NCBI GenBank assembly: GCA_016699955.1
Contig: CP064993.1
Coordinates: 570,001-602,000 of the forward strand
Length of the DNA: 32,000 bases
Reading direction: 5' to 3'
Origin: Candidatus Saccharimonadota bacterium
GTDB taxonomy: Bacteria; Patescibacteriota; Saccharimonadia; Saccharimonadales; UBA4665
Numbering within the stretch: position 1 is the first letter of the stretch; every line of letters starts with the position of its first letter. Below, in pieces: positions 4,163 to 31,987 of the stretch. A program made the position numbers and the translations under genes. A model generated the notes under the pieces. The model was not told where the DNA came from. It was given only the letters and a program-made list of their open reading frames with translations, and ran no database searches.

Positions 4163-4170
4163 AGTTATAA

Positions 4171-5328: not shown

Positions 5329-5919
5329 TTAATTTAATAATGATTTATCAGTTGGGTCGCTTGCAGGCTTTGGAGCCTTCACGGCGACGCCGCGGATAAC
5401 AAATGAAAGTTGTTTACCTGTGAGCTGCGGTTGTTGGTCGACGGCAATAGTGTCGCCAAAGCTGTCGATGACTCGTTCGGCAAGTTTGAAGCCAATATCT
5501 TTGTGTGCTAGCTCGCGTCCACGGAAAAAAAGTGTGATTTTCACTTTGTGTCCGGCTTCGAGAAAACCGGTAACTTTTTTCATTTTGACACCAAGGTCAT
5601 GGTCGCCAATTTTGAGTCCGAAACGCATTTGCTTCATGTCAAGAATTTTGTTGTTCAGGCGGTTTTTTTGTGCCTGCTTGGTCTTCTGGTAATTGAACTT
5701 ACCCCAGTCGACTATTTTGCAGACGGGCGGATTTGCTGCTGGCGATATCTCGACGAGGTCGAGTTCCTGTTCCTGCGCAAGCGTATACGCTTCGCGCGAG
5801 CTCATCACGCCGAGCTGTTTGCCATCTGCATCGATGACCCTGACTTCTGGTGCCCGAATCTGTCCATTCAGGCGTGTACTTGTGCCGATACTAGCTTCTC
5901 CTTGATTACTTCCGTGCAA
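5329..5919 (-). CDS. infC: Translation initiation factor IF-3 (maximal ORF; the true start is probably the AUC codon at 5889)
   Basis: LNGQIRAPEVRVIDADGKQLGV...LDLVEISP.ANPPVCKIVDWGKF.YQ matches IF-3. The TTG at 5919 lies only 3 nt from a -10 box. AAGGAG (5903-5898) sits 8 nt upstream of ATC 5889. Confidence 0.9.
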   Translation of the reverse strand: MHGSNQGEASIGTSTRLNGQIRAPEVRVIDADGKQLGVMSSREAYTLAQEQELDLVEISPAANPPVCKIVDWGKFNYQKTKQAQKNRLNNKILDMKQMRFGLKIGDHDLGVKMKKVTGFLEAGHKVKITLFFRGRELAHKDIGFKLAERVIDSFGDTIAVDQQPQLTGKQLSFVIRGVAVKAPKPASDPTDKSLLN

Positions 5920-11788: not shown

Positions 11789-13774
<1,986 letters not shown>

Positions 13775-13775
13775 T

Positions 13776-16400
13776 ATGGCAGACCAACCGCAAGCACCCA
13801 ACCCTGAACCGATCGAAGATGCTCTTTTGTCAGCAGCCAATGCTACTACATATACAGATGATGATCTGATTGACCGTCATGCTGTTGAAATCGTAGAAGG
13901 TATGAGCCACTCTCGCCTAGTAGAACGGCGGAGTGTTGAAAATGTCATGGAAGACAGCTATCTGCGGTACTCCATGAGTGTTATCATTGACCGCGCGTTG
14001 CCGGATGTACGAGACGGCATGAAGCCAGTTCACCGACGAATTATGTACTCAATGCACGAAGAGGGCTTAAGAAGCTCTGCCCGTCATCGTAAAAGCGCCA
14101 ATGTAGTCGGTGCAGTCATGGGTAAATATCACCCGCATGGTGATTCATCAATCTATGATGCAATGGTACGCCTTGCTCAGCCATGGTCTACGAGGTATAT
14201 GCTGGTAAATGGGCAGGGTAACTTCGGCTCTATGGACGGAGACCCGCCAGCCGCAATGCGTTACACTGAGGCCAAAATGCATCGAGTAGCCGACGAGCTA
14301 CTCGCCGACATAGACAAAGATACAGTAGATTTTCGTGATAACTACGACGGTACGACACAGGAGCCAACAGTTTTGCCCGCCAAGTTGCCCAACTTGCTGC
14401 TCAATGGCCAGCTTGGCATTGCTGTCGGTATGGCTACAAATATCCCACCACATAACTTAGGGGAAGTTGTGGATGCGACTGTATACAAAATTGATCATCC
14501 GGATGCATCACTGGAAAAGCTTCTTGAGTTTATACAGGGGCCAGATTTTCCAACAGGTGGAATTGTTTACGGCGCAGGCTCGATCCGGCAGGCATATGCA
14601 ACTGGCCGTGGCGGTGTAGTTGTACGCGGTGTCGCCGAAATCATCGAAGGGAACAAGGGTAGGCACCAGATAGTTATTAGCGAAATCCCATACTCGCTCA
14701 ATAAAGAGAGCCTGGTTATAAAAATAGCCGATCTCGTCAAAGATAAGAAAATCGCTGGCATAAGTGACCTCCGCGACGAGAGCGCCCGTGGAAAGGTACG
14801 CATCGTCATAGACCTCAAAAGAGATGCATATCCTAAGAAGCTGCTCAACCAGCTGTACAAGCTTACGCCGCTTCAAACAAGTTTTCATTACAACATGATG
14901 GCTCTCATAGACGGCATACAGCCGCGTGTATTGGGTCTGCAAGATATTTTGAATGAGCATATCAAACATCGGCAACAAGTTGTGCGGCGCCGAACAGAAT
15001 TTGAACTACGTAAGGCAAAAGATCGCGCTCACATTCTTGAAGGGCTTAAAGTTGCCCTTGATAATATAGATGAAGTTATTAGAACAATTCGGGCTAGTGA
15101 AACGACCGAAGAAGCTCAAGCCAACTTGATCAAAAAATTTGCTTTCAGTGAAATTCAAGCAAAAGCAATCCTTGCCATGCAGCTCAGGACATTGGCTGGC
15201 TTGGAAAGAAAGAAAATTGAGGATGAACTTGCTGAGCTCATAAAACTAATCTCAGAACTTGAGGCAATCTTGGCCGATGAAAAAAGAATACTCAGCATAA
15301 TAAAAGACGAGCTTAAACAGCTCAAGAAACAGTATGGTGACGAGCGTCGCACCATGGTTGTGCCGAGTGAACTCAATAGACTAAGTGACGAGGATCTTGT
15401 CCCAGACGAACAGGTAGTTGTAACGCTTACATCGGCTAACTATGTAAAACGGAGCACTTTGGTTGAATACAAGCGCCAAGGCCGAGGTGGTAAAGGTCGT
15501 CGTGGCATGGCTACGCGTGAGGAAGATGTCATCGAACACGTTGTAAATGCGTCTACGCACGACTATCTGCTTTTCTTCACAAACAAAGGACGCGTGTTCC
15601 GCCTTAAGACGTACGAAGTGCCCGCCACCTCCTTAAACGCCAAGGGTGTAGCTATTGTGAACTTGCTGCAGTTGCAACCAGAGGAAACCGTTAGTGCCGT
15701 TATAAATGTTTCGAAAAGCGATAGTGAGCAGACTGCAAATCTGATCATGTGTACGAAAAAAGGTGTTGTTAAGAAAACACCATTTGAACAATACAAAAAT
15801 GTGCGTACCTCGGGTCTTATTGCCATCAACCTAGACGATGGTGATGAGCTGAAATGGATAAGACAGACAAGTGGCGACAACGAAGTCGTCATTAGCACTA
15901 AGCAAGGCCAAGCTATTCGGTTCCATGAACGCGATGCGCGACCAATGGGTCGAGTAAGTCGTGGTGTTCGTGGCATACGGCTTCGTAGCGACGACTATGT
16001 CATTGGCATGGACGTTGTAGACGAGCACAGCAGTATATTTGTCATTAGTCGCTACGGCTATGGTAAGCGCACAAAAGTTGCTCAGTTTACGCCACATGCA
16101 CGTGGTGGGGTCGGTATACGATCGGCGGTAGTCAATAGTAAAACTGGTGAGCTTGTTGGGGTGAATACATTAAGTGATAGTGCCGACCAGGAGGTCATAA
16201 TTATCAGCCAAAACGGACAAACCATTCGCTTGGGGCTCAAAGACATACCCGCACTCGGCCGCGCGACGCAGGGAGTACGTATCATGCGCCTCAATGACGG
16301 GGATCAAGTAGTTTCGCTAGCCCTTGTAGACAAATCAGAGCTATTAGATGAAGACGATGAAGACGTTGTCATTGAGTCAGCAGAAAAGCCAACAAAGTAG
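13776..16400 (+). CDS. gyrA: DNA gyrase subunit A
   Basis: [20 protein letters not shown] (QRDR) and the [10 protein letters not shown] catalytic Tyr. C-terminal beta-pinwheel repeats are present. The start lies 1 nt after the gyrB stop. Confidence 0.97.
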
Positions 16401-16913: not shown

Positions 16914-18384
<1,471 letters not shown>

Positions 18385-18652
18385 CTAGGGAGAAACTAAC
18401 CTGCAAACGAGTAATCAATGCAGAGTTAGGTCGATGTCGATGGATTGTAAATCAGTACTGACAATTCAATTTCCGGTTTTTATCGGACGGCACATTCAGT
18501 TTCTGAACCTTGTGAACTTGACGTTGATAATGCAGTTCGTAGGTACATAATGATGCTTGCATCAATATGTACCGAAAACAGCATTTTCTCTCCGCAAGGA
18601 GAGGTTGCACTACTCAGTTTTTAACAGTCACAGCACGGCTAGTCTGAATTAT

Positions 18653-18690
18653 AAGGAGCCCCACACTTGCGAGAGGGCTCCTTTTTATTT
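18653..18690 (+). terminator. Intrinsic terminator after the 16S 3' processing stems
   Basis: AAGGAGCCC-13 nt-GGGCTCCTT followed by TTTATTTT. It abuts the stop of the convergent ORF 18685..19179. Confidence 0.6.
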
Positions 18691-19179
18691 TCTCAATCTA
18701 AAGTACGCCCAACAGAGACAAGCGGACATAATTACGCTCGCCACTGAAATCATGATAAGTGTATCAACCATGGATACGGTGCTTCCACCAAAATATTGAC
18801 CACGACCAGAATTAACTGCAATTTCATTTGCAGCGAATAGAGCAAAAATTATCGCAACCAAAATGAATGTAATTGCGCCAATAAGGTAGTTTTTTCTGCT
18901 CGGTGAGTATATTGAAGCATTCGAACGGATGGGACTGTGTGGCGTTTCTGTTTTTCGAAGTTTAAGATAACTTGTTATGCTTACATATACACCCGCTACT
19001 AGAACCGGAACATACGTAATCAAGCCAAAACTTAGTAGGATGCCGCTAAGGCCAATTTTATCGTAAGTACCGAAGTAAACCCAATCGGTGTACATGCCGA
19101 ACAGAAACACTAGTGCAATAATTGAGACTAACACAGATCCTATGAAGCGGACTATTAATGGTGTACGTTTATCATTCAT
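18685..19179 (-). CDS. Integral membrane protein (164 aa, ~4 TM)
   Basis: Hydrophobic ORF 15 nt downstream of the GNAT gene on the same strand. No family was recognised. Confidence 0.6.
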   Translation of the reverse strand: MNDKRTPLIVRFIGSVLVSIIALVFLFGMYTDWVYFGTYDKIGLSGILLSFGLITYVPVLVAGVYVSITSYLKLRKTETPHSPIRSNASIYSPSRKNYLIGAITFILVAIIFALFAANEIAVNSGRGQYFGGSTVSMVDTLIMISVASVIMSACLCWAYFRLRK

Positions 19180-19194
19180 ATTACGATTTTATAT

Positions 19195-19770
19195 TCATTC
19201 ATATCGTTGGGTGAAGGGGAAGCGGAACTTTTTTTTGGCGTCCTGGCTAGCCAACGAAGGCTGTTCGGTAGTGCCACTAACATGTCGTTCAAAGTAGGCC
19301 ATGGGTTGTGGCAGGTGGCTAGAAACAGCCTTGCTGTCTGCGCGGACAAAGCCATGTGATAGATGGTAGGATTGGAGCTTTTCGTTGTCAGACGGGCAGG
19401 TCAGTCGAAGATACTGGCGGCCTTGTTTGGCAACTTCTGCACAAATGAGGTCTATGATTTGGCTGCCAACATGTTGACCACGTAGGCCAGGCGCAACGAC
19501 GAAACGGTGCAGGTAACCGGCTATGGGTGGTTGTTTGCCCCACCGCGCCAAGTCATCCCAGAAAAGCATAAATACGCCGACAATCTCCTCGTCGGTGTGG
19601 GCAACGTACATATTGCCGCCAGCCACAATAGCCTTCAAATTGGTCTCATCTGTTGTCGTTTCGCCCCATGCCAAATCACCCCGGTACATTTTGCTGCGTA
19701 TGCCGTGTGACAGTATAGATTGTATGTCTGGTATGTCTTCTTCTATGGCTGGCGCAATCTCAATGTTCAT
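19195..19770 (-). CDS. GNAT-family N-acetyltransferase
   Basis: Motif A HRFVVAPGLRGQHVGSQIIDLI. Start taken at MNIEIAPAIEED (ATG 19770, with TATACT 8 nt upstream). The longer ORF to 19830 would run into the IS inverted repeat. Confidence 0.8.
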   Translation of the reverse strand: MNIEIAPAIEEDIPDIQSILSHGIRSKMYRGDLAWGETTTDETNLKAIVAGGNMYVAHTDEEIVGVFMLFWDDLARWGKQPPIAGYLHRFVVAPGLRGQHVGSQIIDLICAEVAKQGRQYLRLTCPSDNEKLQSYHLSHGFVRADSKAVSSHLPQPMAYFERHVSGTTEQPSLASQDAKKKFRFPFTQRYE

Positions 19771-19807
19771 ATATTTAGTATAGCAACACAAACTATATTT
19801 GGCCTTT

Positions 19808-21106
19808 AATTCGACCTCCAAGTGCAACAAACCAAAACTATCCTCTAAAAAAGTAGGACATTAGCTTCTCGTCTGCCTTGTCTCTAGAATTAGGTGTGTT
19901 CAGCAACTAATAATCGATGAAAGGAGACAGCTAATGTCCTATCGTCATCTTATCTCAGATGACCGTGTTGTCATAGCAACACTACTGCAAGAACACAGAA
20001 ACCAAAGCTATATCGCCAGTAGGATTGGCGTCAATCGTTCGGCCATCAGTCGTGAGCTGGCTCGCAACAAAACACGAGACAAACCAGTCCAGATACCACT
20101 GCCCAAACGCCCGACCATTCTCGACAAAGACTGCCGCCATGCCCGAGGTAGCGGTCTCGCCCAGGACAAATACGAAGCAGGAGAGAATTACTGCAGCGCA
20201 GTACGCGAAGTTCATCTTGCCAACCGTTTCTATGAACCGCGCAGTGCCCAGCGTGCTGCAACCACACGACGTTTGAATGCAAACCAAAGCCGGCTGCGGT
20301 TGGCATACCAGTCTGGCGACTGGCTCGAACAGTACGTCAGACATCGTCTACTCAAAAATGAGTGGTCACCCGAGCAGATTGCCGGTGGCTTAAGACGAAA
20401 CTACGGTATTGTACTTCACTGGCAAACCATTTACGACTATATCGATCTTTGCTCCAACAAAACAGATAAGAAACAGCTTCAAAAGCACCTTCGGCGCGGC
20501 GGCAGACCGTACCGTCATCACGGTACGAACGAACGCATCAAGGCTAGGCAGAAAGCTCTGCCGCCAATTCAGAGCCGTGACGCAGTGATTGAACAGCGAA
20601 CTCGTCTAGGTGACTTCGAAGGCGACACAATTGTTGGGTTGGACACTAAAGACCGAATCGCCACCCACGTTGATCGAACAAGTGGGGAGTGTCTGCTCGG
20701 GTTAGTACTTGGCTATGACGCACGTAAGATAGCTGACGACACCGCTAAGCGGCTGAAACAATATGCACAGTCCGGGCTCCCCATCCGGACTGTTACATAT
20801 GACCGTGGTACCGAGTTTGCCGAGTATGAGCGTCTGCGAAACAATGCTGCCATAGCTGTGTACTTTGCTGATGCCTATACGCCATCACAGCGTGGCAGTA
20901 ATGAAAATCTAAACAGCCTTGTCCGCCAATACTACCCAAAACGATTCGACTTTAAGACGATTACCCCAAGACAACTCAAAGTCGTAGAAACCAAGCTTAA
21001 CAACCGTCCAAGAAAACGATACAATTTCCGCACGCCTATTCAGCAGAGATACTACGTACAGGCAAGACAGTTAGCCGGTTTTGTTGCACTTCGGGATAGA
21101 ATGTAG
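19808..21106 (+). mobile_element. IS30-family insertion sequence (~1.3 kb; ends approximate)
   Basis: Single transposase ORF. Imperfect terminal inverted repeats: ATTCGACCTCCAAGTGCAACAAACC (19808-19833) versus the reverse complement of GGTTTTGTTGCACTTCGGGATAGAAT (21077-21102). Confidence 0.6.
19934..21106 (+). CDS. IS30-family DDE transposase
   Basis: N-terminal HTH (SYIASRIGVNRSAISRELARN). DDE region FEGDTIVG...TYDRGTEFAEY...SQRGSNENLNSLVRQYYPK. RBS AAAGGAG. Confidence 0.9.
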   Translation: MSYRHLISDDRVVIATLLQEHRNQSYIASRIGVNRSAISRELARNKTRDKPVQIPLPKRPTILDKDCRHARGSGLAQDKYEAGENYCSAVREVHLANRFYEPRSAQRAATTRRLNANQSRLRLAYQSGDWLEQYVRHRLLKNEWSPEQIAGGLRRNYGIVLHWQTIYDYIDLCSNKTDKKQLQKHLRRGGRPYRHHGTNERIKARQKALPPIQSRDAVIEQRTRLGDFEGDTIVGLDTKDRIATHVDRTSGECLLGLVLGYDARKIADDTAKRLKQYAQSGLPIRTVTYDRGTEFAEYERLRNNAAIAVYFADAYTPSQRGSNENLNSLVRQYYPKRFDFKTITPRQLKVVETKLNNRPRKRYNFRTPIQQRYYVQARQLAGFVALRDRM

Positions 21107-21116
21107 GGGCCCAAAC

Positions 21117-21145
21117 TTGTTTTTAAGGGTGCATTCCGGTAAAAT
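21117..21145 (+). promoter_or_regulatory. Candidate promoter for the tRNA-Ala/tRNA-Ile pair
   Basis: TTGTTT-17 nt-TAAAAT, ending about 11 nt before tRNA-Ala and beginning about 10 nt after the IS end. Confidence 0.4.
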
Positions 21146-21156
21146 ACTGCGGTCGA

Positions 21157-21233
21157 GGGGTGATAGCTCAGTTGGCTAGAGCACCTGCTTTGCAAGCAGG
21201 GGGTCCGGGGTTCGAGTCCCCGTCACTCCACCA
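21157..21233 (+). tRNA. tRNA-Ala (anticodon UGC), CCA encoded
   Basis: GGGGTGATAGCTCAGTTGGCTAGAGCACCTGCTTTGCAAGCAGGGGGTCCGGGGTTCGAGTCCCCGTCACTCCACCA. The G3:U70 identity pair is present. Confidence 0.95.
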
Positions 21234-21458
21234 AATATTTTGAGACAAACGTTAAGTTTTTCTCATCCAAACAGGGGAACGGAATGAATCCGTTTGATCG
21301 TCTGCTCACCCTAGCAAATTAGGGAAAATTCATGGGGGCGCAGTGCCTAAAGCACAGCGTCTCCACCAAAACGAATTTACCAGACGCGTCAAAAGCGTCG
21401 CCACAATCGTTGGTAGATTGGGCAAGACTAGTTAACAATTCAATTAGATCTGACCGAT

Positions 21459-21535
21459 GGGCGATTAGCTCAGCTGGTTAGAGCGCGTCACTGATAATGA
21501 CGAGGTCGGAGGTTCGAGTCCCTCATCGCCCACCA
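21459..21535 (+). tRNA. tRNA-Ile (anticodon GAU), CCA encoded
   Basis: GGGCGATTAGCTCAGCTGGTTAGAGCGCGTCACTGATAATGACGAGGTCGGAGGTTCGAGTCCCTCATCGCCCACCA. Confidence 0.95.
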
Positions 21536-21610
21536 GTCAGATCTAATTAAAATTTTATAACAATGTCTAGGCTAGAATTACGAAACGCTCGTCGCCTATC
21601 AAAAAGTTTC

Positions 21611-21637
21611 AAAAATCCGCAGGCAGCGGATTTTTTT
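21611..21637 (+). terminator. Terminator-like hairpin after tRNA-Ile
   Basis: AAAAATCCGC-aggca-GCGGATTTTTTT. Confidence 0.5.
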
Positions 21638-21708
21638 GTGATATATATTACAAAACTGAAGAACGTTTTCAGGGGCGAGGGTGTTGCAAAAATGACTACG
21701 GCATATGC

Positions 21709-21737
21709 TTGACCGCCCCTGTAAAAAAGAGTAGAAT
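21709..21737 (+). promoter_or_regulatory. 23S-5S promoter
   Basis: TTGACC-17 nt-TAGAAT, about 460 nt upstream of mature 23S. A boxA-like TTCTTTTTACAAG lies at ~21846. Confidence 0.5.
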
Positions 21738-22479
21738 TGTACGGATGCTTGAGTTTAGACAGTGAAGCTTCGGTAACGAAGCCAAAACGGAGATAAACCG
21801 CCAAGCTTTAAGCTTAAACTCAAGCTAAAAACGCATCGACGTCTATTCTTTTTACAAGAAACAGGCTGCGGTGAAGTGTCTTGGGTAGCAACTTAACAAG
21901 TTGAATATGTAAGAGAAGAGAATTTGTTCGCTCGACATCGCCCGAGATAATCCTTGGGAGTTACAGCGAACAAAAAAGCAATTCGTATGTGTCTTTGTAA
22001 ACACATACGTCTTAATTTAAGACAAACGGCTATTGATGTGCGATCACACTGGTTTTCAAATTGCCAGATGTGGTACATACCAATAACTAGTCAACACGAG
22101 CATTTATTTTTACGAGTAAGTGTTCGTGATTTAGCTCGACTACCTTCGGGTAATCGAGCAAATTGCACAAAACAGATGAGATTTCGATCTCATCTTTCGT
22201 AAAAAGTTACTCAAGCGCACACAAAGGATGCCTTGACATGCAATACCGAAGAAGGACGTGATGAGCTGCGAAAAGCTCCGGGGAACAGCCAAATATGTTT
22301 TGATCCGGAGATGTCCGAATGGGGAAACCCGGTTAGAGTAATGTCTAATCACCGCTATCTGAATATATAGGATAGTGAGTAGGTAACCGCCTGAACTGAA
22401 ACATCTTAGTAGGGCGAGGAAGAGAAAGTAAACAACGATTCCGGTAGTAGTGGCGAGCGAATCCGGAACAGCCCAAACC

Positions 22480-22655
22480 TATTTTGCTTTTGCCTGGTAA
22501 TTTATTACTGGCAAATAAGTTGGTAGACGAATGTAAATTAGGGGTTGTGACATTGCAAACATCCTTGTGTGGGAGTCCGCTTCGGCGGGAGTCCACACGA
22601 GGCAGCTAGATCTACCAGTGTCTAGCATAAGGTCAAAAATTGATGAGGCGAGCAG
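22480..22655 (+). other. 23S domain I expansion (~145 nt extra relative to my recollection of E. coli ~270-300)
   Basis: It lies between conserved GGAACAGCCCAAACC and GTTGGAAAGCTGCGCC. It contains a GTGTGGGAGTCCGC-TTCG-GCGGGAGTCCACAC hairpin. Confidence 0.55.
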
Positions 22656-22952
22656 AAGCAGTTGGAAAGCTGCGCCATAGACGGTGATAGCCCGGTACGC
22701 CAAGTTTCATCAACCTTATATTTGCAAAGAGCTTGCTGTCGGTTACGTAGCTTCGGCTGTGTATCTAGAGCAAACTCGGTTGTCGAGTAAGTCGGGACAC
22801 GTGAAACCCTGACTGAATCTGGGGGGTCCACCCTCCAAGGCTAAATATATTGCATGATCGATAGAGAACAAGTACCGCGAGGGAAAGGTTAAAAGAACCC
22901 CGGGAGGGGAGTGAAATAGAACCTGAAATTGTGTGCGTACAAGGAGTCGGAG

Positions 22953-23128
22953 CCCGCTCTTCATAGATGAAGAGTATTTGGCAGAAAACAGTTAACAGAT
23001 GACATAAATTTAGCATAAAACATGTAACAGGTATCAGACTTCAGTGTCTGCGATCTAAAACTGGCTAAATTTCTGCTCAACGATATCTGCTACTTGCTAA
23101 ATGGAGCTCATCATTTGTGATGAGCGGG
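22953..23128 (+). other. 23S helix-25-region insertion (~150 nt extra), closed by CCCGCTC/GAGCGGG
   Basis: An AT-rich segment replaces the short hairpin between GTACAAGGAGTCGGAG and GTGACGGCGTGC. No ORF is present. Confidence 0.6.
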
Positions 23129-24245
23129 TGACGGCGTGCTTTTTGTAGAACGATCCAACGAGTTATTTGGCATGGCAAGCTTAAGTCATATGACGTAAGC
23201 CAAGCGAAAGCGAGTCTGAATAGGGCGCATAGTCATGTTGAATAGACCCGAAACCAGGTGACCTAACCATGGGCAGGTTGAAGCGTCGGTAAAACGACGT
23301 GGAGGACCGAACCGTAGCGAGTTGCAACACGCCCGGATGACCTGTGGTTAGCGGTGAAATGCCAATCGAACCTGGAGATAGCTGGTTCTCCTCGAAATAG
23401 CTTTAGGGCTAGCGTTGTACGGTAACATGTGGGGGTAGAGCTCTGTTTTGGACTGGGGGTCGTAAGATTACCCACCCTTGACAAACTACGAATACCACAT
23501 GCGGAACTACAGCAGTCAGAACGGCGGGGCTAAGCTCGTCGCTCGAAAGGGAAACAGCCCAGATCACCATCTAAGGTCCCCAAGTCTATGCTAAGTGGGA
23601 AACGAGGTGGGGTTTCTTAAACAACTAGGATGTTGGCTTAGAAGCAGCCATTCATTTAAAGAGTGCGTAACAGCTCACTAGTCAAGAGACCCTGCGCGGA
23701 AAATGTAACGGGGCTAAGCATAGCACCGAAGATGTGAATTTCTAGATTTATCTAGGAGTGGTAGAGGAGCGTTCCTCTCTGCGTTGAAGCTTGACCGCGA
23801 GGTCTGAGTGGAGCGTGAGGAAGTGAGAATGTTGGAATGAGTAACCATAAGGCAGGTGAGAATCCTGCCCACCGAAAGAGCAAGGTTTCCTGGGCCACGG
23901 TAATCGTCCCAGGGTTAGTCGGTCCTAAGCCGAGGCGCGTAGCGTAGGCGATGGACAACAGGTTAATATTCCTGTACTGGCATGTATTTGTTATATGTGC
24001 GCGGCATAGTAGTAGGAGCGGATTCATGGTTATATCCGTCTAAGTACGAGAAACACGTACGAATGAAACGACCATCAGGTTGAATTCCTATGAAAGTGCT
24101 GACTAGAAAAGCAATATAACGCGTGGTACATGCCATCCGTACCGCAAACCGACACAGGTGCTCAGGTCGAGAAGACCAAGGTGTACGAGTGATTCTTCGT
24201 TAAGGAACTCGGCAAACAAGCGACCGTAACTTCGGGATAAGGTCT

Positions 24246-24480
24246 GCCCCCTCACTCTGTCTATGACAGGTGAGTATGCCAGTTTTCTTTTTGAAAACTA
24301 TGATTGCTACTGCAAGTTTATAACTTCTTGCAGCTAGCATGTCTACCAAGATCTTTTGAGACATATCAGAAAGAAAGCTGTCCCAAACACACTATTTACA
24401 AAGCTGCTTCAGGACCCGAAAGGGAAAAGAGCAGCCCGAGAAAAACCGCAAGGTTTGTCTCATAGGTAGAGTGAGGGGGC
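24246..24480 (+). other. 23S helix-63-region insertion (~190 nt extra), closed by a perfect 13-bp stem
   Basis: GCCCCCTCACTCT (24246-24258) pairs with AGAGTGAGGGGGC (24468-24480). It is flanked by conserved CTTCGGGATAAGG and GCAACTGTTTACCAAAAACACAG. Confidence 0.65.
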
Positions 24481-25358
24481 CGCAGCTAAGGAACCCATGC
24501 AACTGTTTACCAAAAACACAGGTCTGTGCTAACACGAAAGTGGATGTATACGGGCTGACTCCTGCCCAGTGCTGGAAGGTTAAGGGGAGTTGTGTATGCA
24601 GCGAACTGAAGCCCCAGTGAACGGCGGCGGTAACTATAACCGTCCTAAGGTAGCGAAATTCCTTGTCAGGTAAGTTCTGACCCGCACGAATGGAGTAATG
24701 ATATGGGTACTGTCTCAACGAAGAGCTCGGTGAAAGTGCATTGACGGTAAAGATGCCGTCTGTCCGCAGCAGGACGAAAAGACCCCGTGCAGCTTTACTA
24801 TAGCTTGACATTGAGCCGGGTTATAACATGTGTAGTATAGGTGAGAGGCTTTGAAGCAGAGACGCTAGTCTCGGTGGAGCCACCAGTGAAATATCACCCT
24901 TGTTATGATCTTGTTCTTACGGGAGCCACAAATTGGTAATGAGACAAAACTACATAATGTTTTGAGTTCCTCGTTATTAGTTTCTGGCTTCCGGACCGTG
25001 TCTGGTGGGTAGTTTAACTGGGGCGGTTGCCTCCTAAAGAGTATCGGAGGCGTTCAAAGGTTAGCTAACTACGGATGGAAATCGTAGTGATAGTGTATAC
25101 GCATAAGCTAGCTTGACTGTGAGGCCTACAAGCCGAGCAGGGACGAAAGTCGGAGTAAGTTTTCCGCTGTCAGTACATTTGTACAAGAGTGTGGTATCGG
25201 CAGCGCTTTCGGATAAAAGTTACGCCGGGGATAACAGGCTTATAGCATCCAATAGTTCACATAGACGATGCTGTTTGGCACCTCGATGTCGGCTCATCTC
25301 ATCCTGGGGCTGAAGCAGGTCCCAAGGGTCCGGCTGTTCGCCGGTTAAAGAGGTACGT

Positions 25359-25392
<34 letters not shown>

Positions 25393-25935
25393 TTATATCC
25401 GCTGTGGACGCAAGGAAATTTGAGAGGATCTACCCCTAGTACGAGAGGACCGGGGCGGACGCACCGCTGGTGTATCAGTTGTTCTACCAAGGGCATTGCT
25501 GAGTAGCTATCGTGCGGAATAGATAAGCGCTGAAAGCATATTAAGCGCGAAACTAGCCTCAAGATTAGATTTCCCTATGAGGGTCGTGAAAGACTATCAC
25601 GTTGATAGGCGCAAGGTGTAAGTGCAGTAATGTATTCAGCCGAAGCGTACTAATCGCCCCATTGACTTTTTACGACCTATGAATCGTGCATTTTACGTGC
25701 ATGGTTCATAGGCAAAAAAGTGCATTGACTAGTTATTGGTGTGGTTTTACCATGCTGGTAGCAACGTTTGTTTTAACATTGCTTGCTCTTTTTTACATAC
25801 TATCGTCTAATTGTAATGGACATCGACACCGACTGTGACTATTCCTTGTACCAAGGGAAAAGAGCAGCCGAAGCCAGCGGATTTATTCCGCGACTCCGCG
25901 CGACCGAGAAAAACCGTAGGTTTGTCTCAGTTATG

Positions 25936-26048
25936 TCGGTGCCCATAGCGAGAGGGTCACACCTGTTCCCATACCGAACACAGCAGTTAAGCCTCTCAGC
26001 GGTTACAATACTTGGGTCTTCTAGCCCTGGGAAAATAGCACGGTGCCG
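25936..26048 (+). rRNA. rrf: 5S ribosomal RNA
   Basis: GTTCCCATACCGAACACAGCAGTTAAGC core. Helix I pairs CGGTGCC with GGTGCCG (with G-U pairs). Confidence 0.85.
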
Positions 26049-26058
26049 TTTTATGACT

Positions 26059-26086
26059 AAGCCCTCCATTCGTGGAGGGCTTTTTC
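26059..26086 (+). terminator. Intrinsic terminator of the 23S-5S unit
   Basis: AAGCCCTCCA-ttcg-TGGAGGGCTTTTT. Confidence 0.8.
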
Positions 26087-26139: not shown

Positions 26140-26398
26140 AAAATATATATCCAAAATAGCAAGAGCAACATTTTTGCATTGCAATAATGTTGGCGAGTTG
26201 AGGTTAAGCGATTGTCAACGAAATGCTTATTAGTAACATGTATGTAAAAAAACGTTGTACAAAATAAATTATACAGATGTAATCGATGTAATTTAGCGTT
26301 GTAAATATTACGTTATAATTATCACTACACTATTGATTAACTACTTCGCTCCGCCTATTATAAGTGTGTACAGACCTAGTCCCATAGGTTCTTACAAA

Positions 26399-26436: not shown

Positions 26437-27048
26437 ATGCGTAAAAAGCTTAGTGCACTTGTAGCTCTATTTGCAGTAGCTGGACTGTTACTTCCCGTAG
26501 CCGTTTCTGCCGCCACAAATACGAGCCTTTCACAAGTAATTAACCCTGGCACCTTGACGTATGATATCGTCGACGGTGCCGGTTCACCGGTAGCAAGCCC
26601 AGCTGTGGCTTTCCCGGCAACAACATTTAGTTTCTCGTGTCAGACACAGAACGCCACGTTCGGTACTGCTTCACAGAAAGTCAAAGTGAACAACCCAGTT
26701 CTTTCAGGCGTTAAGCTTGATATCAATGCTCAGACACCAGCATCAGATAACTGGACAACAGGCAGCGAGAGCTACAGCTACAAAGATGCTGCAGGCGCTG
26801 GTTGTACAGGTGGTCAAATGACCGTTAGCGGTGGTAGCTTTAACCAAACCGCTGGTGCAAACGTACCTACCTTTACGCTTCCTGGCGGAGCATTTACTAG
26901 CACTTCCCCTGTGACGCTCATGAACAACACGAGCACTACTGCATGGGAAGGCGAATTGACAGGTTACACACTTAGCCAGAAGGTTCCTGCAGAGCAGGCC
27001 GATGGTACATATAGCTTGAGTATGGTTATTTCTGCTATTGCGCAGTAA
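26437..27048 (+). CDS. Secreted small surface protein, paralogous to the C-terminal domain of the 824-aa protein (WxL-like domain, tentative)
   Basis: Signal peptide MRKKLSALVALFAVAGLLLPVAVSA|AT. LTYDIVDGAGSPVASPAVAFP...NATFGTASQKVKVNN aligns with LSVDIVDSGGATVGSPSVGFG...NATLGATEQRIRVTN of gene 3. Both end with the shared terminus VPAEQADGTYSLSMVISAIAQ. Confidence 0.85.
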   Translation: MRKKLSALVALFAVAGLLLPVAVSAATNTSLSQVINPGTLTYDIVDGAGSPVASPAVAFPATTFSFSCQTQNATFGTASQKVKVNNPVLSGVKLDINAQTPASDNWTTGSESYSYKDAAGAGCTGGQMTVSGGSFNQTAGANVPTFTLPGGAFTSTSPVTLMNNTSTTAWEGELTGYTLSQKVPAEQADGTYSLSMVISAIAQ

Positions 27049-27105
27049 AAAACCATAAACGAGTTCTAGTCAAAAAGGCGCAAACAATGTACAGTAAAGA
27101 GCAAG

Positions 27106-28653
27106 ATGAGAAAACGACTGCAAAAAATGGGACTATTGCTTGTTGTTGCCCTCCTGCTCTTTACTGCCGCGCCCCAGGTTCTCGCGGAAACCGGCTCCAT
27201 TGGAATAGCGCCGGCGTTTCCGAAGCCCAATAATGCGCGCAGCCGTAGCATATTTATACTGACGCTCAAAGGCGGGGAAGTGGTTGAGGATGGAGTTCGG
27301 GTGTACAACTACACAAGTGAGTCGCGCACGGTTTTAGTCGACGTAGTGGATTCAATCTCAGCCACCGACGGCTCGTTCTCTTGTAAACAAAATAGTGAAA
27401 ATAAAACGGCGGTTGGCAAATGGATTAAACTAGCCGCAAAAGAAGTCACCGTTTCTCCAAAATCCAATGAGCTCGTCACGTTTACTGTTTCGGTTCCCGA
27501 CAAAGTGGCGCCTGGCGAACATGGCGCGTGCATTACTGCGCAGGACACAAAAAATGTTGCTGCAAAAAGCGGAGCGGGGGTTCTGCTGGGTTTCCGCAAC
27601 GCCATCCGGGTAGCAATAACTGTACCCGGAAAAATTGTTAAAGACTTGCGAATTGAGAAGGTTGACGTTGCCCGGAATGAAAAAGGCAACTATACTGTCT
27701 CGCCTATATCAAAGAACACCGGTAATGTCTCGCTCGATGTAAAAGCGCGAGCCCAGCTCAAAAGCTTCTTTGGAGAACAAACTGAAGTAAAAGCCGCTGA
27801 TTATCCAGTTATTGCGGGCGCTACAACCGGCTGGGCGTTTGAGTTCAAGCAGCCGTTTTGGGGTGGTTTTTACCGAGCATATACCTCGCTTAGCTACAAT
27901 GCTAACCCCGCGACAGGGCTTGGCGACCAGGTAAACGGAGAACAAAAAAAGATTCGGCGTGACACGGGCTATTTCTTTATGATGCCGAAACCACAGGCGC
28001 TTGCTGTCGAGCTAAGCCTTCCACTACTTGCCCTAGGGGCACTCATTAGTACACTGCGCCGAAAGCACATCCGACGCACTGCGTACAAAAAGCTAGAAAG
28101 CTACACCGTGCAAGCTGGAGACACAATTGTATCTATTGCCGCCGCACACGCCTGTAAATGGAAAAAACTTGCAAAGTTAAATGGCTTACGTCCACCGTAT
28201 ATGCTTCAGAGCGGGCAAATAGTGCTTCTTCCAAAGACGGCGGCTAAACACCGTAAGAAACGTTCTGACTGGCAAGAAGTAGCAGATGATACAGTAGAAA
28301 AAGCCCTTGAGACGCCAGAGCCTGTTCAGCCTGTCACGCCAGTAGCTCAGCCCGCGCCACAAGATTGGGAATTACCAGCTGCTACGGCGCCTGCTCAGTC
28401 TCAGCCAACAGTGTCGCAGCCTCACGTAGCCTTGCAGCAACCGAGGGTTGTCGTTATCCGCTCGCAAGCAAAACCGAAACGGAGTAGCAGAAAGAGCAAG
28501 CGCTATTCATGGGCGTCACCAAGCACTGAATGGTCGCCACTGCAGGCCACGCAAGAGCCATCCCCAATACAGGCGGCTTCTGCTAAGCGTAAAACATCGA
28601 CACGAAAAAAAACGTCAAACAAAAGGGTCAAAAAAAGTGACACAAAGCGATGA
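27106..28653 (+). CDS. Membrane-anchored surface protein: signal peptide, DUF916/DUF3324-like ectodomain (tentative), TM helix, LysM domain, Pro/Gln linker, polybasic tail
   Basis: Signal peptide ...APQVLA|ETG. Ectodomain pattern SIFILTLKGGEVVEDGVRVYNYTSESRTVLVDVVDSISATDGSF...VTVSPKSNELVTFTVSVPDKVAPGEHG. TM ALAVELSLPLLALGALISTL then RRKHIRR. LysM YTVQAGDTIVSIAAAHACKWKKLAKLNGLRPPYMLQSGQIVLLP. Lys/Arg/Ser-rich end. Confidence 0.85.
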   Translation: MRKRLQKMGLLLVVALLLFTAAPQVLAETGSIGIAPAFPKPNNARSRSIFILTLKGGEVVEDGVRVYNYTSESRTVLVDVVDSISATDGSFSCKQNSENKTAVGKWIKLAAKEVTVSPKSNELVTFTVSVPDKVAPGEHGACITAQDTKNVAAKSGAGVLLGFRNAIRVAITVPGKIVKDLRIEKVDVARNEKGNYTVSPISKNTGNVSLDVKARAQLKSFFGEQTEVKAADYPVIAGATTGWAFEFKQPFWGGFYRAYTSLSYNANPATGLGDQVNGEQKKIRRDTGYFFMMPKPQALAVELSLPLLALGALISTLRRKHIRRTAYKKLESYTVQAGDTIVSIAAAHACKWKKLAKLNGLRPPYMLQSGQIVLLPKTAAKHRKKRSDWQEVADDTVEKALETPEPVQPVTPVAQPAPQDWELPAATAPAQSQPTVSQPHVALQQPRVVVIRSQAKPKRSSRKSKRYSWASPSTEWSPLQATQEPSPIQAASAKRKTSTRKKTSNKRVKKSDTKR

Positions 28654-28730
28654 ACGTGATCGGCATGGGGACAGTAAGCAACAGTTGTGTGTGCTCTTGC
28701 AAGAGATGTGTAAAAACTTCGTAAGGGTCA

Positions 28731-31205
28731 ATGATGGCTGCAGCCTTATTGCGTCGTAACTGGCGCTTCGGGACAACTAGACTGACCGCATATATTTGCG
28801 CGGCCGAGCTGATGTTGGCTGTAGTATTCCCAATCTTTCATGCGTCGCCCGCAAATGCCGCAAATTTTAGCATGCGCGTTGGCTACTACCTAGGCACGGG
28901 CGCCACAAAAACCATAAGCGGGCTTGGCTTCCAGCCGCAACTGGTGATTATCCGCGCTTCGACGACTGCTGGAGTTTCCGTCTTTAAGACCAGCGCAATG
29001 CCAGCTGCCAACGTGGCGTATTTTAACGGAACGGTCGACAACACGGCAAATAACATTACACTGAACGCCGATGGTTTTAGTGTTGCTACACTTGCCAATG
29101 TCAATACGGCAAATGTACTGTACCGCTGGTATGCGTTTACTGGCTCAGATTGCTCATCGACGGGTTATTTTTGTATGGGCACATATACCGGAAACGGTGC
29201 TGCGAGCCGAGCAATTACGACCGGGTTTCAGCCAGACATGGTAACCGTGAAGCGCTCTACAAATGTTGGAGCTCATTTTCGCACAGCGGCAATGGCTGCA
29301 AATCGGACTGAGTTTTTCACGACGACCGCTGCAGATACGGCAGGGAATTACATTGCAAGCTTTGCTGCAACCAGTTTTACGGTTGGGGCAACAGATAATG
29401 TAAACGGCGGTGTTTATAACTTTTTTGCCTTCCGGGGCGGAGCTGGTAGCTTTGCTCAAGGAACATATAGCGGCAACGCTACTGACAACCAAGATATCAC
29501 CGGCGTTGGTTTCCAGCCAGACCTTGTTGTCGTAAAAAACAGCACAAGCGCAACGGCAAATAACCGACGCTCTATCATGTCAGGCGATAAGCATTTTGGA
29601 GACCTTTCAAGCTATCTGAGTGATGTAGTAGTAGATGGGGTCAATATGGTACAGGCTATGCAGAGCGATGGATTTCAGGTTGGGGCGGGAGTCAATGTCA
29701 ATCAGACAGGTACAACAATGTATTGGTTTGCTTTCGGCGGGGCACCAAGCCCAGCAGGTACCGGTACATTTAGTATGGCACAAGGGTCATATACTGGTAA
29801 CGGCGCAGCACGTTCAATAAGCGCCATAGGTTTTGCTCCCGACCTAGTTATCGTAAAGGACAACGCCGCAAACTTTGCCGTTTTTCGCATAAAACAGATG
29901 GCAGGGGACACTACAGCATATTTTGCATCTGCAACGGCAGATTTTGCTGGAGGGATAACATCACTCGGTAGCGACGATTTTAGCCTGGGAACAAGCACTG
30001 TTACAAATACCAACGGAAATACCTACCACTGGCAAGCCTTTGGCAATGCGTATACATCAGACACGAGCAGCGGTTCGGCAGATTTTGCAACGGGAGTATA
30101 CCATGGGAATGGTATAGGTAGCCGAGGGATAGCGGACATACCGTTTCAGCCAGATTTAGTTGCCATGAAAAGAAACTCAACCACAGCGGCAACGTTTCGC
30201 ACAAGTGCGCATAGCGGTGATATAAGCAGTTTTTTTGCTGCCACCGCTGATGCCGCAAATACTGTGCAAAGCTTGTTGGCAAATGGCTTTCAGGCCGGTA
30301 CTAATGCAGCCGTCAATAGCAGTGGCTCTTTATACCGATGGTTTGCTTTCAAATCTGGTACGAACTTTAGCGTCGGCTCCTACACTGGTAATGGCGTAAA
30401 CGGTAGGCAAGTGGCAGCACCATTTTGGTCTGATGCCATTTGGGTTAAGCGTTCTACGGCGGTTGCGGGGGTACTGCGCCCATCAACTCTCGCCGGTACG
30501 GCTACTCAATTATTTCCAAATACAGCCAACACCGCTACCGCAATCACCGCAATTAATGCAAGTGGATTTACCGTAGGAACCAATACGGCAACTAACACGA
30601 ACGGTGGTTTGTACCGTTACGCGGTCTGGAGAGTGCCCCCGACGGGAGGTCTTAGTGTCGATATTGTCGACAGTGGGGGTGCGACCGTCGGTTCTCCTTC
30701 AGTTGGATTTGGTAGTCTCGGCCTGGTTTTTAACTGCGCTGAAAGCAACGCAACACTGGGTGCTACCGAACAAAGAATCCGCGTAACGAATATGTCTGCC
30801 AATGCGAGCTGGGTGCTGTCAATTGCTCCGACGGGCGGAGTTAATGCGTTGTGGGATAATGTTGGTAATACGGCGCAGTACGACTTCAATGACATTACTG
30901 GTTCGCCAGCGGGGTGTAGCGACGGATCTGATAGTGATTCTGTTGCAGGTAAACTGCGTGTCGAACCGGCGCTCAGTACGATTACGCCGCAACTAGGATG
31001 TTCGGTTTCCAATGTGACCCGCGGAAGTGACGAAGACTACGATGATGGAACCGTCGATGCAATCAATCTCATGACTGCTGCCTCGGGTTCAAACACGGAA
31101 TGCTACTGGGAATTAACAGGGGTCACGCTGCGCCAAAACATCCCAGCCGAGCAGTTGCCTGGTACTTATAGCGTTGGACTTACCATAACCATTATCGCGC
31201 AATGA
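28731..31205 (+). CDS. Large secreted surface protein: six tandem ~99-aa repeats plus a 184-aa C-terminal WxL-like domain (tentative)
   Basis: N-terminal hydrophobic signal ending ASPANA|AN. Repeats share GxYxGNG...GFQPDLVxVK...FRT...GFxVG...VNxxGxxYxWxAF. The C-terminal domain carries SWVLSI and YWELTG and ends IPAEQLPGTYSVGLTITIIAQ. Confidence 0.85.
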   Translation: MMAAALLRRNWRFGTTRLTAYICAAELMLAVVFPIFHASPANAANFSMRVGYYLGTGATKTISGLGFQPQLVIIRASTTAGVSVFKTSAMPAANVAYFNGTVDNTANNITLNADGFSVATLANVNTANVLYRWYAFTGSDCSSTGYFCMGTYTGNGAASRAITTGFQPDMVTVKRSTNVGAHFRTAAMAANRTEFFTTTAADTAGNYIASFAATSFTVGATDNVNGGVYNFFAFRGGAGSFAQGTYSGNATDNQDITGVGFQPDLVVVKNSTSATANNRRSIMSGDKHFGDLSSYLSDVVVDGVNMVQAMQSDGFQVGAGVNVNQTGTTMYWFAFGGAPSPAGTGTFSMAQGSYTGNGAARSISAIGFAPDLVIVKDNAANFAVFRIKQMAGDTTAYFASATADFAGGITSLGSDDFSLGTSTVTNTNGNTYHWQAFGNAYTSDTSSGSADFATGVYHGNGIGSRGIADIPFQPDLVAMKRNSTTAATFRTSAHSGDISSFFAATADAANTVQSLLANGFQAGTNAAVNSSGSLYRWFAFKSGTNFSVGSYTGNGVNGRQVAAPFWSDAIWVKRSTAVAGVLRPSTLAGTATQLFPNTANTATAITAINASGFTVGTNTATNTNGGLYRYAVWRVPPTGGLSVDIVDSGGATVGSPSVGFGSLGLVFNCAESNATLGATEQRIRVTNMSANASWVLSIAPTGGVNALWDNVGNTAQYDFNDITGSPAGCSDGSDSDSVAGKLRVEPALSTITPQLGCSVSNVTRGSDEDYDDGTVDAINLMTAASGSNTECYWELTGVTLRQNIPAEQLPGTYSVGLTITIIAQ

Positions 31206-31987
31206 AAAAGGTATTGATTTGTGCTCTGCTGGCTGGCGTGTGGATCGCTGCGTTGCCTCCGCAGAGGGGCAGTGCACTACCGATTGTTTCTTTGCGACAG
31301 AACATCACACAGATTAGTTGCGTGCTGACAACGGTGGTTCGTGATGATGGTAGTCTCAGGTACGTTATTGTGCCGGGTTGTGGTGCTTTAGTTGTACCAG
31401 AGCTTTACGCAAAGCAGCCACAACTTATTACGCACCAGCTGTCTCAGTTCGCCGTTCCAACCCAAGGTGAAGCAGCAAAACTGTTTCTGCGAACAAAACC
31501 AATCTACCTTGACACCAGCGCAGAAAACCAACCTGCGGGTGGCTATGTGCTGCTTGTGTATAAGGATATCAAATATGCTTTCCTGTTGCCGGGAGAACGG
31601 TTCCGTTTGCATGATCGTACGTTTGAAATAATTAGTATTAAAAATGGTACGCTAAATATACGATTTTTGCCCGAGGGCAAGGAGACAGCCGTGAAGCTGG
31701 GAGAAACCATTCGTCTGCAGCTTGCCTACGATGGTACTCCGGATGTCTCACTTACATTTATCCAACAGAATATCGATGGTAGTGTGCTCGTTCGCGTGCG
31801 ATTTCCCGTACAACAAGAGGTAATGCAGCTTGTGGAAGAGCAGCGCACCGCCGACATCGCGACGATGCTGTTGCTGGTTTTTGGGGGGAGTTTACTAGTA
31901 CTGTTCCTACAAAGTAAGACGTTAGCCCGTCGTGGCATACCCAGCGCAACGTGGTGGAATACTCATACGCATCAACCACTTGGCTAG
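31202..31987 (+). CDS. Signal-peptide protein with a C-terminal TM anchor (261 aa), unknown family
   Basis: The start overlaps the upstream stop (ATGA). Signal MKKVLICALLAGVWIAALP. C-terminal helix IATMLLLVFGGSLLVLFL followed by KTLARRG. Confidence 0.75.
   Translation: MKKVLICALLAGVWIAALPPQRGSALPIVSLRQNITQISCVLTTVVRDDGSLRYVIVPGCGALVVPELYAKQPQLITHQLSQFAVPTQGEAAKLFLRTKPIYLDTSAENQPAGGYVLLVYKDIKYAFLLPGERFRLHDRTFEIISIKNGTLNIRFLPEGKETAVKLGETIRLQLAYDGTPDVSLTFIQQNIDGSVLVRVRFPVQQEVMQLVEEQRTADIATMLLLVFGGSLLVLFLQSKTLARRGIPSATWWNTHTHQPLG

Follow-up and report, generated by a model that had tools for sequence, protein, structure and literature searches.

A four-gene operon, read entirely from the + strand, was analysed within a 32,000-nt stretch of the genome of a Candidatus Saccharimonadota bacterium (contig CP064993.1), hereafter the window, whose numbering is used for all open reading frame (ORF) coordinates. 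The operon is probably a highly diverged version, of a type proper to the candidate phyla radiation (CPR), of the WxL/WxLIP (Csc) cell-surface cluster. Canonical clusters, known from Lactobacillales, Enterococcus, Listeria and Bacillus, associate small WxL proteins, large WxL proteins, a DUF916-DUF3324 protein (WxLIP) and an LPXTG protein (Siezen 2006, PMC1534035; PMC9772566; PMC10599100); their defining features were taken from Hassan & Williamson 2022 (PMC9772566) and Hassan et al. 2023 (PMC10599100), and include the attachment of WxL domains, by non-covalent contacts, to peptidoglycan, to the WxLIP or to both. More than 91% of the known WxL sequences come from Bacillota, mostly gut commensals (PMC9772566). 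If the domain shared by genes 1 and 3 is accepted as WxL-like, the layout of such a cluster is present, genes 1 to 3 being adjacent. Traits specific to the CPR version would be a LysM domain past the WxLIP anchor, a DUF7483 passenger in gene 3, a fourth protein anchored by a transmembrane helix, and the lack of an LPXTG protein. What is said below about the function of the operon is inferred throughout, by analogy with the systems already described.

Operon layout and the WxLIP-like protein

The four genes, listed with their domains in Table 1, had been described in an earlier note, made from the sequence alone, as co-directional and closely spaced. Recomputation of coordinates and spacing gave identical values: 57 nt separate gene 1 from gene 2, 77 nt separate gene 2 from gene 3, and genes 3 and 4 overlap by 4 nt (ATGA). 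The motif AAAGGAG is found 8 nt upstream of the gene 1 ATG. All four proteins open with a basic n-region and a hydrophobic 19-mer, as judged by hydropathy only, in agreement with the signal sequences which the note had assigned to each of them; by the same measure, further transmembrane-like segments occur in gene 2 (residues 299-317) and in gene 4 (residues 218-236).

On sequence grounds, the product of gene 2 is a WxLIP homologue, with two predicted extracellular Ig-like domains, one of the DUF916 type and one equivalent to DUF3324, and a single transmembrane helix. The first domain matches Pfam PF06030 above the cut-off. The second is not matched by Pfam PF11797, but is covered when the gene 2 family is compared by hhalign to six proteins annotated as 'DUF916 and DUF3324': the alignment (98.5%, E = 1.5e-15, 260 columns) pairs gene 2 residues 2-267 with residues 3-280 of 361, spanning both Ig-like domains. 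Searched against the sequences of the PDB, the gene 2 family profile matches the solved EfmWxLIP1 chains 9i25_C and 9i1y_A at E = 2.5e-11. A word-indexed database search with the ectodomain returned only 20 relatives, nearly all carrying both PF06030 and PF01476, and one homologue (P0121) is listed at NCBI as 'DUF916 domain-containing protein [Candidatus Saccharibacteria bacterium]'. The proposal that gene 2 combines a DUF916/DUF3324-like ectodomain with a membrane anchor is thus upheld; the note had missed the LysM domain and the 130-aa basic tail which follow the helix.

This last portion distinguishes gene 2 from canonical WxLIPs, which are 337-365 aa long, end soon after the helix and have no LysM (PMC10599100). 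In gene 2, the signal-like N-terminus and the one helix are accompanied by a 198-aa part beyond the membrane, LysM included, which is conserved in CPR homologues; residues 319-515 contain 39 Lys or Arg versus 14 Asp or Glu. In about 40 homologues, all sharing the same layout, LysM always lies 10-30 residues past the helix, behind an Arg/Lys-rich stop-transfer stretch. Homologues measure 486-557 aa in Saccharibacteria and about 380 aa in other CPR lineages, the Saccharibacteria ones carrying an extra basic tail, rich in Pro, Ser and Gln, of 100-170 aa. Since LysM is C-terminal to both the helix and the basic stop-transfer stretch, the positive-inside rule predicts that it faces the cytoplasm. 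The gene 2 LysM shows a weak match to the cytoplasmic protein Kbp, and SafA/SpoVID-type LysM domains match too, which suggests, as far as such similarities go, that LysM can have roles other than peptidoglycan binding.

A WxL-like domain shared by genes 1 and 3

Gene 1 and the C-terminal part of gene 3 are clear paralogues, as the earlier note had claimed. BLASTP pairs gene 1 with residues 639-824 of gene 3 (E = 6e-16), 32% of the 186 aligned aa being identical; identity is about 43% across the first 49 aligned residues, by hand count on the same alignment, and the two proteins share the C-terminal tail [VI]PAEQ..GTYS..IAQ. The W-x-L motifs SWVLSI and YWELTG, also reported in the note, are indeed found in gene 3.

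The domain has no match in Pfam or NCBIfam, and its family was collected by a profile search of 1.84 billion representative proteins, which yielded 755 clusters at E<=1e-3, 683 of them at E<=1e-10; the count is a lower bound, of at least 755 clusters at 50% identity. All source names are of CPR organisms, namely Saccharibacteria, Colwellbacteria, Moraniibacteriota, Andersenbacteria and 'Patescibacteria group'. In the 271 proteins retrieved, the median distance of the domain from the C-terminus is 0 residues: 185 are small proteins, consisting of the domain alone, and 86 are large ones, whose passengers include DUF7483, DUF2341, Laminin_G_3, SdiA-regulated and Ig_Rha78A_N domains.

Column statistics on 268 domains define two tryptophan motifs. 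The first, N-P-x-A-A-x-G-W-x-L-x-[IL]-A-A, has its W in 211 domains, with L, V or I at +2, aligns with canonical D-x-R-G-T-x-x-G-W-x-L-x-V, and corresponds to SWVLSI in gene 3; the second, [CY]-W-[DE]-L-T-G, has its W in 222 and corresponds to YWELTG. An additional Trp, W106, is invariant, two Cys pairs are conserved, and a D-x-D-x-D loop is found in most members. A strongly conserved N-terminal motif, Q-x-I-N-x-G-T-L-x-x-D-I-V-D, precedes a long loop, and the family tail reads S-Q-K-I-P-A-E-Q..G.Y.L.M.L. In some genomes, two or three small WxL-like genes are arranged in tandem, as in a Moraniibacteriota locus (L028, 52-1736) and on a 41.7-kb contig carrying P0068, P0071 and P0072, an arrangement paralleled by canonical clusters with several small WxL genes.

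For comparison, canonical Firmicutes clusters were located on annotated plasmids by tblastn, with a WxL motif peptide as query, and six annotated canonical loci, from Enterococcus, Bacillus, Terribacillus and Pontibacillus, were used. A set of 127 canonical proteins was assembled from 113 database matches carrying PF13731 and 14 annotated plasmid WxL proteins; all the 120 canonical matches listed carry PF13731. The CPR domain was aligned by hhalign to the 14 plasmid proteins (87.7%, P 3.4e-6, 40 columns), to the set of 127 (89.4%, P 2.1e-6, 164 columns) and to 58 WxL proteins having the small WxL protein P0343 as master (90.6%, P 1.3e-6, 149 columns), each P-value referring to a single pre-specified comparison, with no database search. 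The two longer alignments are collinear from the mature N-terminus through the last strand, and pair recognizable motifs: G-T-L-S-x-D-I of the CPR family with canonical G-P-L-S-I-D, I-x-V-x-N-P..G-W-x-L with V-Q-V-x-D-x-R-G-T..G-W-x-L, and I-P-A-E-Q..Y with V-P-G-S-T..Y.

Controls support the specificity of this similarity. Reversed profiles score about 12 and 60 block shuffles 15.6 +/- 3.0 (maximum 23), as compared to 41 for the real pair. When families were compared in all combinations, high probabilities were obtained only for the CPR domain with WxL (89.4%) and for the gene 2 family with WxLIP (98.5%), mismatched pairs reaching at most 4.7%. Plain hmmsearch between the CPR and canonical families gives 12-15 bits, too weak for use, and hhalign of the CPR domain with large-type Firmicutes WxL C-termini gives a non-significant 0.8%, a value we set aside as uninformative, the latter alignment being made of three good sequences and a mis-framed one (L012).

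Predicted structures point in the same direction. AlphaFold2 (AF2) models of gene 1, which is all-beta, and of canonical P0343 were made independently, with predicted local distance difference test (pLDDT) values of 88.6 and 89.4, respectively. Their DSSP assignments agree at 124 of the 149 positions aligned by hhalign; strand falls on strand at 54 positions, against 29 expected and 23-35 under register shifts, and the order of the strands is identical throughout. From sequence and models, the domain thus appears to bear a distant but specific resemblance to the small WxL domain from one end to the other. Because the canonical second motif is missing, and gene 1 has neither motif intact, we refer to it as a WxL-like sister family and not as a member of Pfam WxL. 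The WxL identity proposed in the earlier note therefore holds in part: profile-profile comparison (89-91%), strand agreement and C-terminal architecture are in its favour, a PF13731 match and the second canonical motif are missing. The profile searches which the note had called for recover DUF916 through Pfam itself; similarity to WxL and DUF3324 emerges through hhalign but not through Pfam.

A number of observations weigh against this assignment, or against the interpretation of the operon as a WxL cluster. The hhalign probability, about 90%, remains under 95%, and is supportive rather than conclusive. At E<10, PF13731 matches none of 59 family members, nor gene 1 or gene 3, and no relevant entry came out of a hidden Markov model search of PDB sequences with the CPR profile: the solved WxL chain 9i25_A, which the canonical WxL profile does find, was not retrieved. 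Canonical WxL domains have two motifs on adjacent strands, G-W-x-L and a C-terminal L-T-W-x-L; at the position of the latter the CPR family has [LIV]-x-[VIA], with no Trp, and its own second W-x-L (YWELTG) aligns with canonical G-T-W, another conserved Trp. Gene 1 contains neither W-x-L, having V-K-L (GVKLDI) and W-E-G-E-L (AWEGELTG) where W-x-L is found in most of the family, a deviation not remarked in the earlier note. LysM, normally an extracellular peptidoglycan binder, is found here on the side of the membrane predicted to be cytoplasmic. The locus contains no sortase and no LPXTG protein, the LPXTG motif being also absent from gene 4 and its homologues. Finally, in a possibly analogous cluster of S. 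epibionticum ML1, discussed below, the genes are non-essential in co-culture transposon sequencing (Table S1, PMC10633639).

One alternative is that the domain of genes 1 and 3 is a CPR-specific beta-sandwich unrelated to WxL, the similarity being convergent or compositional, in which case the operon would be an unclassified secreted one, built on a DUF916 scaffold. We regard this as unlikely. The lack of Pfam and NCBIfam matches, the hhalign value and the missing second motif are what it would lead one to expect, as are the two Cys pairs, the D-x-D-x-D loop and W106, all of them not found in canonical WxL; DUF916 domains, moreover, occur outside WxL clusters too (PMC10599100). It is opposed by the full-length collinear alignment, with its matches at G-x-L-S-x-D, G-W-x-L and V/I-P-x-x-x...Y-x-x-x-L, by the clean controls and by the strand-by-strand agreement of independent models. 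It also leaves aside that the same architecture and WxLIP partnership recur in every related locus of sufficient length, and that another Saccharibacteria protein, encoded beside a DUF916 gene, has a structure-based match to WxL.

Passengers, conservation and possible surface assemblies

The large protein encoded by gene 3 carries, between its signal-like N-terminus and the WxL-like domain, six tandem repeats, overlooked in the earlier note, which had recognized the C-terminal domain but not the content of the N-terminal 600 aa. They match Pfam DUF7483 (8e-40, six stretches) as well as DUF7361, and, among phage families, PHROG 24898 'tail fiber protein' (6.6e-51) and PHROG 19943 'virion structural protein' (4.2e-31). 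Literature and structure searches found no paper mentioning DUF7483 or DUF7361, and no solved structure covering them.

Gene 4 features a signal peptide, an ectodomain with a Cys pair and a transmembrane helix (nt 31853-31909), and has no Pfam, NCBIfam or PHROG match. Its homologues, encoded at the equivalent place of the operon in 10 loci among those examined, share with it the signal peptide, two conserved Cys, the helix and a P..WW.H.H.P tail, predicted to be cytoplasmic. Compared by hhalign with the LPXTG proteins of three canonical clusters, it gives 0.4%, and the same method shows no kinship of gene 4 with WxL, WxLIP, the CPR domain or LPXTG proteins. The earlier description of gene 4 as a small protein with a C-terminal anchor is correct, but the protein is not of the LPXTG type. 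The small LPXTG protein is frequent, and not obligatory, in WxL clusters (Hassan et al. 2023, PMC10599100).

The gene order small, WxLIP, large and small anchored is conserved in Saccharibacteria, and its first three positions are conserved in Colwellbacteria as well. Specifically, the small, WxLIP-plus-LysM and large genes follow each other in Saccharibacteria loci L001-L003, in Colwellbacteria loci L004-L006, with an intervening beta-lactamase-like gene, and in nearly all of 18 GTDB loci, the latter collected with a narrower alignment which reached mostly Saccharibacteria. In the Saccharibacteria loci, a homologue of gene 4 comes next; none was detected in the three Colwellbacteria ones. The passenger of the large protein is swapped among loci, with variants of 411-426 aa, 1091 aa, 1451 aa and 2179 aa, the remaining operon being constant. 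The closest genome is that of an uncultured Saccharibacteria metagenome-assembled genome (L013, 92% identity), and the nearest loci are all from Saccharibacteria genomes of this kind. The synteny survey which the earlier note had proposed thus finds the order kept in related genomes, and on these grounds assembly contamination, the objection raised there, is excluded. A small protein, a WxLIP with LysM and a large protein with the C-terminal domain were also found on contig CAYTUI010000001.1 (L030), labelled 'uncultured Gammaproteobacteria bacterium': most likely a CPR contig was mis-binned here, the other option being a rare occurrence outside CPR.

If the operon works like its enterococcal counterpart, the Sec pathway would export all four products. 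Genes 1 and 3 may then have their WxL-like domains docked by the membrane-anchored gene 2 product, perhaps with a contribution of the cell wall, so that the six DUF7483 repeats of gene 3 would stay at the cell surface through non-covalent contacts and serve as a ligand-binding, adhesin-like module. Gene 4 would provide a second membrane-anchored accessory, in place of the LPXTG protein of Firmicutes clusters. Display of adhesins is plausible for ultrasmall CPR cells; a role in host attachment would be a pure extrapolation from such analogies.

A different assembly may be envisaged, a monoderm analogue of chaperone-usher pili, in which gene 1 is the polymerising major subunit and gene 3, with a binding module at its N-terminus and a pilin-like domain at its C-terminus, the tip adhesin of a surface fibre held together by donor-strand exchange, with the two Ig-like domains of gene 2 serving as a PapD-like, strand-donating chaperone or anchor, tethered to the membrane. 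The idea draws on fold comparisons and on an analogy of architecture. In Foldseek searches of the PDB, the best matches of the gene 1 model are the chaperone-usher pilins CfaB, FimA, FimG, Csu, Caf1 and PapA, together with the donor-strand fibre CanA, and the canonical WxL model also matches CfaB, FimG, CupE and SafA: entries 4y2l (CfaB), 5iqm/5iqo (FimG) and 2co3 (SafA) are in both lists, pilins dominating that of gene 1 and being mixed with unrelated folds in the canonical one. These matches are all weak (E >= 3e-3, TM-score 0.3-0.49, root-mean-square deviation mostly 6-16 A), and the library searched evidently lacks 9i25_A, as the confident canonical WxL model does not match it. The entry belongs to a solved complex, 9i25, recorded in the PDB sequence file as a 'WxL domain surface protein' with EfmWxLIP1, on which no paper was found in our literature search.

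Further elements would fit a fibre. The coexistence of small proteins, made of the domain only, and of adhesins ending with it mirrors that of major pilins and tip adhesins, and the conserved N-terminal motif stands before a long loop. An AF2 prediction has a beta-hairpin strand of DUF916 inserted into WxL (Hassan et al. 2023, PMC10599100), and DPAM puts DUF916-like domains in the group 'Ig/FnIII/E-set/PapD-like' (Wang et al. 2023, PMC10633639). In addition to the weakness of the fold matches, however, the monomer model of gene 1 is complete and confident, with no obvious missing strand, the locus contains no usher-like or sortase-like assembly gene, and no fibre has been reported for WxL systems; chaperone-usher systems differ also in the lack of any sequence similarity and in the monoderm nature of the organism considered here. 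Taken together, we deem a fibre quite unlikely.

A broader version of the same idea, which we put forward as a long shot, is that WxL clusters in general, and the CPR version especially, are the monoderm counterpart of chaperone-usher systems, the L-shaped, membrane-tethered WxLIP acting as strand donor or assembly platform and the WxL-like domains as pilin-like subunits, which would polymerise or be presented by strand complementation. If true, the operon would encode an unrecognised modular adhesive appendage of ultrasmall CPR cells, whose swappable passengers, some of them in common with phage tail fibres, would serve the recognition of host cells. In CPR, the conserved LysM and basic tail of the WxLIP would link this appendage to the cytoplasm, as would the WW-H-H tail of gene 4.

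A prophage remnant, or a tail-fibre cassette derived from a phage, is hardly credible and was rejected on synteny grounds: the repeats of gene 3 do match the two PHROG families, and an IS30-like transposase lies 5 kb upstream, but many Saccharibacteria and further CPR lineages keep both the gene order and the chromosomal location next to the rRNA operon, a signal peptide is present on each of the four products, genes 1, 2 (LysM aside) and 4 have no PHROG match, the window contains no other phage genes, and elsewhere the passenger is swapped with no change in the remaining operon. The repeats, strongly similar to phage tail-fibre proteins of the PHROG 24898/DUF7483 type, are here combined, in one protein, with a signal peptide and a WxL-like anchor, within a conserved cellular operon.

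Related clusters, genomic surroundings and implications

Interpreted as a CPR version of the WxL/Csc cluster, the operon shares with canonical ones a WxLIP-type protein with two Ig-like domains and a transmembrane helix, a small protein made of the domain only, a large protein with the same domain at its extreme C-terminus and variable N-terminal passengers, signal peptides on all products, and a small anchored protein as fourth member. Both also show the first G-W-x-L motif, and their strands succeed each other in the same general order. In contrast, the CPR domain is not seen by PF13731, has no Trp at the LTWxL position, and possesses some 30 residues that finish with IPAEQ..G.Y.L.M.L, along with Cys pairs and a D-x-D-x-D loop. 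Its small and large copies are of one type, whereas the small and large types of Firmicutes are reported to differ in topology. LysM and the basic tail past the helix of the WxLIP, a fourth protein anchored by a helix, the lack of a sortase, and a CPR host in place of a Bacillota one complete the differences.

A cluster of similar content is hidden in published data. In S. epibionticum ML1, SEML1_0626 matches DUF916 proteins by Foldseek (TM-score 0.83), and the adjacent SEML1_0627 a 'WxL domain-containing protein' (TM-score 0.854); neither has a Pfam match, and the two genes adjoin one for a 1284-aa surface protein (Wang et al. 2023, Table S2, PMC10633639). Disruption of SEML1_0625 results in a growth advantage (Table S1, PMC10633639). 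The main text of that paper mentions neither WxL nor DUF916, which appear in the supplementary tables only. Compared by published table entries, and not by sequence, SEML1_0625-0628 resembles our operon in being a Saccharibacteria cluster with a 188-aa protein matching WxL, an adjacent 316-aa protein matching DUF916, a giant surface protein and, downstream, a small one. It differs in gene order (large, small, DUF916, small), in a DUF916 protein too short to include a LysM and a tail past the helix, and in a passenger made of RCC1/FN3 repeats instead of DUF7483. Among searchable papers, none makes a connection in its text between WxL and either Saccharibacteria or Patescibacteria. WxL-like clusters of Saccharibacteria are therefore latent in public data, but not described: the novelty suggested by the earlier note stands as regards the text of papers, and is tempered by the DUF916 label at NCBI and by the tables of Wang et al. 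2023.

Table 1. Features of the four-gene operon and of the adjoining rRNA operon, in window coordinates
Feature	Position	Strand	Remarks
Gene 1	26437-27048	+	203 aa; small secreted protein; signal peptide residues 1-25, one WxL-like beta domain, residues ~29-203
Gene 2	27106-28653	+	515 aa; WxLIP-like type I membrane protein
DUF916 / WxLIP_PGBD Ig-like domain, gene 2 residues 34-140	27205-27525	+	Pfam PF06030, 38.9 bits (cut-off 27.3)
Second Ig-like domain (DUF3324 / HBD equivalent), gene 2 residues ~175-267	27628-27906	+	From hhalign coverage
Transmembrane helix, gene 2 residues 299-317	28000-28056	+	By hydropathy; followed by RRKHIRR; same layout in ~40 homologues
LysM domain, gene 2 residues 333-376	28102-28233	+	Pfam PF01476, 44 bits; predicted cytoplasmic
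Basic tail, gene 2 residues 386-515	28261-28650	+	130 aa, rich in Pro, Ser, Thr, Gln
Gene 3	28731-31205	+	824 aa; large secreted protein; signal-like N-terminus, residues 1-43
Six tandem DUF7483 repeats, gene 3 residues 44-633	28860-30629	+	~93 aa each; variable passenger
WxL-like domain, gene 3 residues 639-824	30645-31202	+	SWVLSI, YWELTG; family HMM 6e-69
Gene 4	31202-31987	+	261 aa; small accessory protein
Promoter-like site	26333-26361	+	Upstream of gene 1; weak consensus match only; tentative
Terminator-like hairpin	26059-26082	+	10-bp stem, 6 GC pairs, plus T-run; strong
5S rRNA	25935-26051		Upstream of the operon, which starts ~390 nt further on
IS30-like transposase within rRNA operon	19934-21106	+	HTH_38 and rve domains
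GNAT acetyltransferase within rRNA operon	19195-19830	-	
ORF without assigned function within rRNA operon	18685-19179	-	

On its 5' side, the operon is set apart from the rRNA operon by the terminator-like hairpin. The number of promoter-like sites is not above shuffle expectation, and the promoter proposed upstream of gene 1 is tentative for this reason. The rRNA operon is itself interrupted, at 18385-22199, by three genes lying between 16S rRNA, which ends at 18384, and the tRNA-Ala/tRNA-Ile/23S portion. The 23S rRNA match (22200-25674) is 3475 nt long versus a model of 2925 nt, which implies one or more insertions totalling about 550 nt; within the match, no + strand ORF of at least 100 aa was found, and no Rfam intron family at E<=0.1.

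Further upstream, the gyrB (11801-13774) and gyrA (13776-16400) genes are directly preceded by a 982-aa ORF (8758-11706) with weak matches to AAA_22 and TraG-D_C, a signature of VirD4-like coupling proteins. A 244-aa ORF on the - strand (6801-7535) contains an N-terminal ChlI/Lon-like part and only the start of a Mg_chelatase ATPase domain, as in YifB/ComM-like proteins, and may be truncated or frameshifted. IF3 (5329-5919, - strand), RNase P RNA (3815-4165) and a ClpB-like gene (1351-3744) were also recognized.

Should the assignment be correct, the WxL system of the Bacillota type extends to CPR, and the origin of this surface-display machinery would move much deeper. A sister family of this size, invisible at the sequence level to existing models, would warrant a new family of the Pfam type. 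The conserved LysM on the predicted cytoplasmic side may bring fresh insight into what LysM does, or into the membrane topology of CPR bacteria. Above all, the operon offers a concrete, modular candidate for how variable binding domains, some of them common to phage tail fibres, may be hung on the wall of CPR bacteria, which are obligate epibionts, a question which is directly testable, since Saccharibacteria are now genetically tractable.

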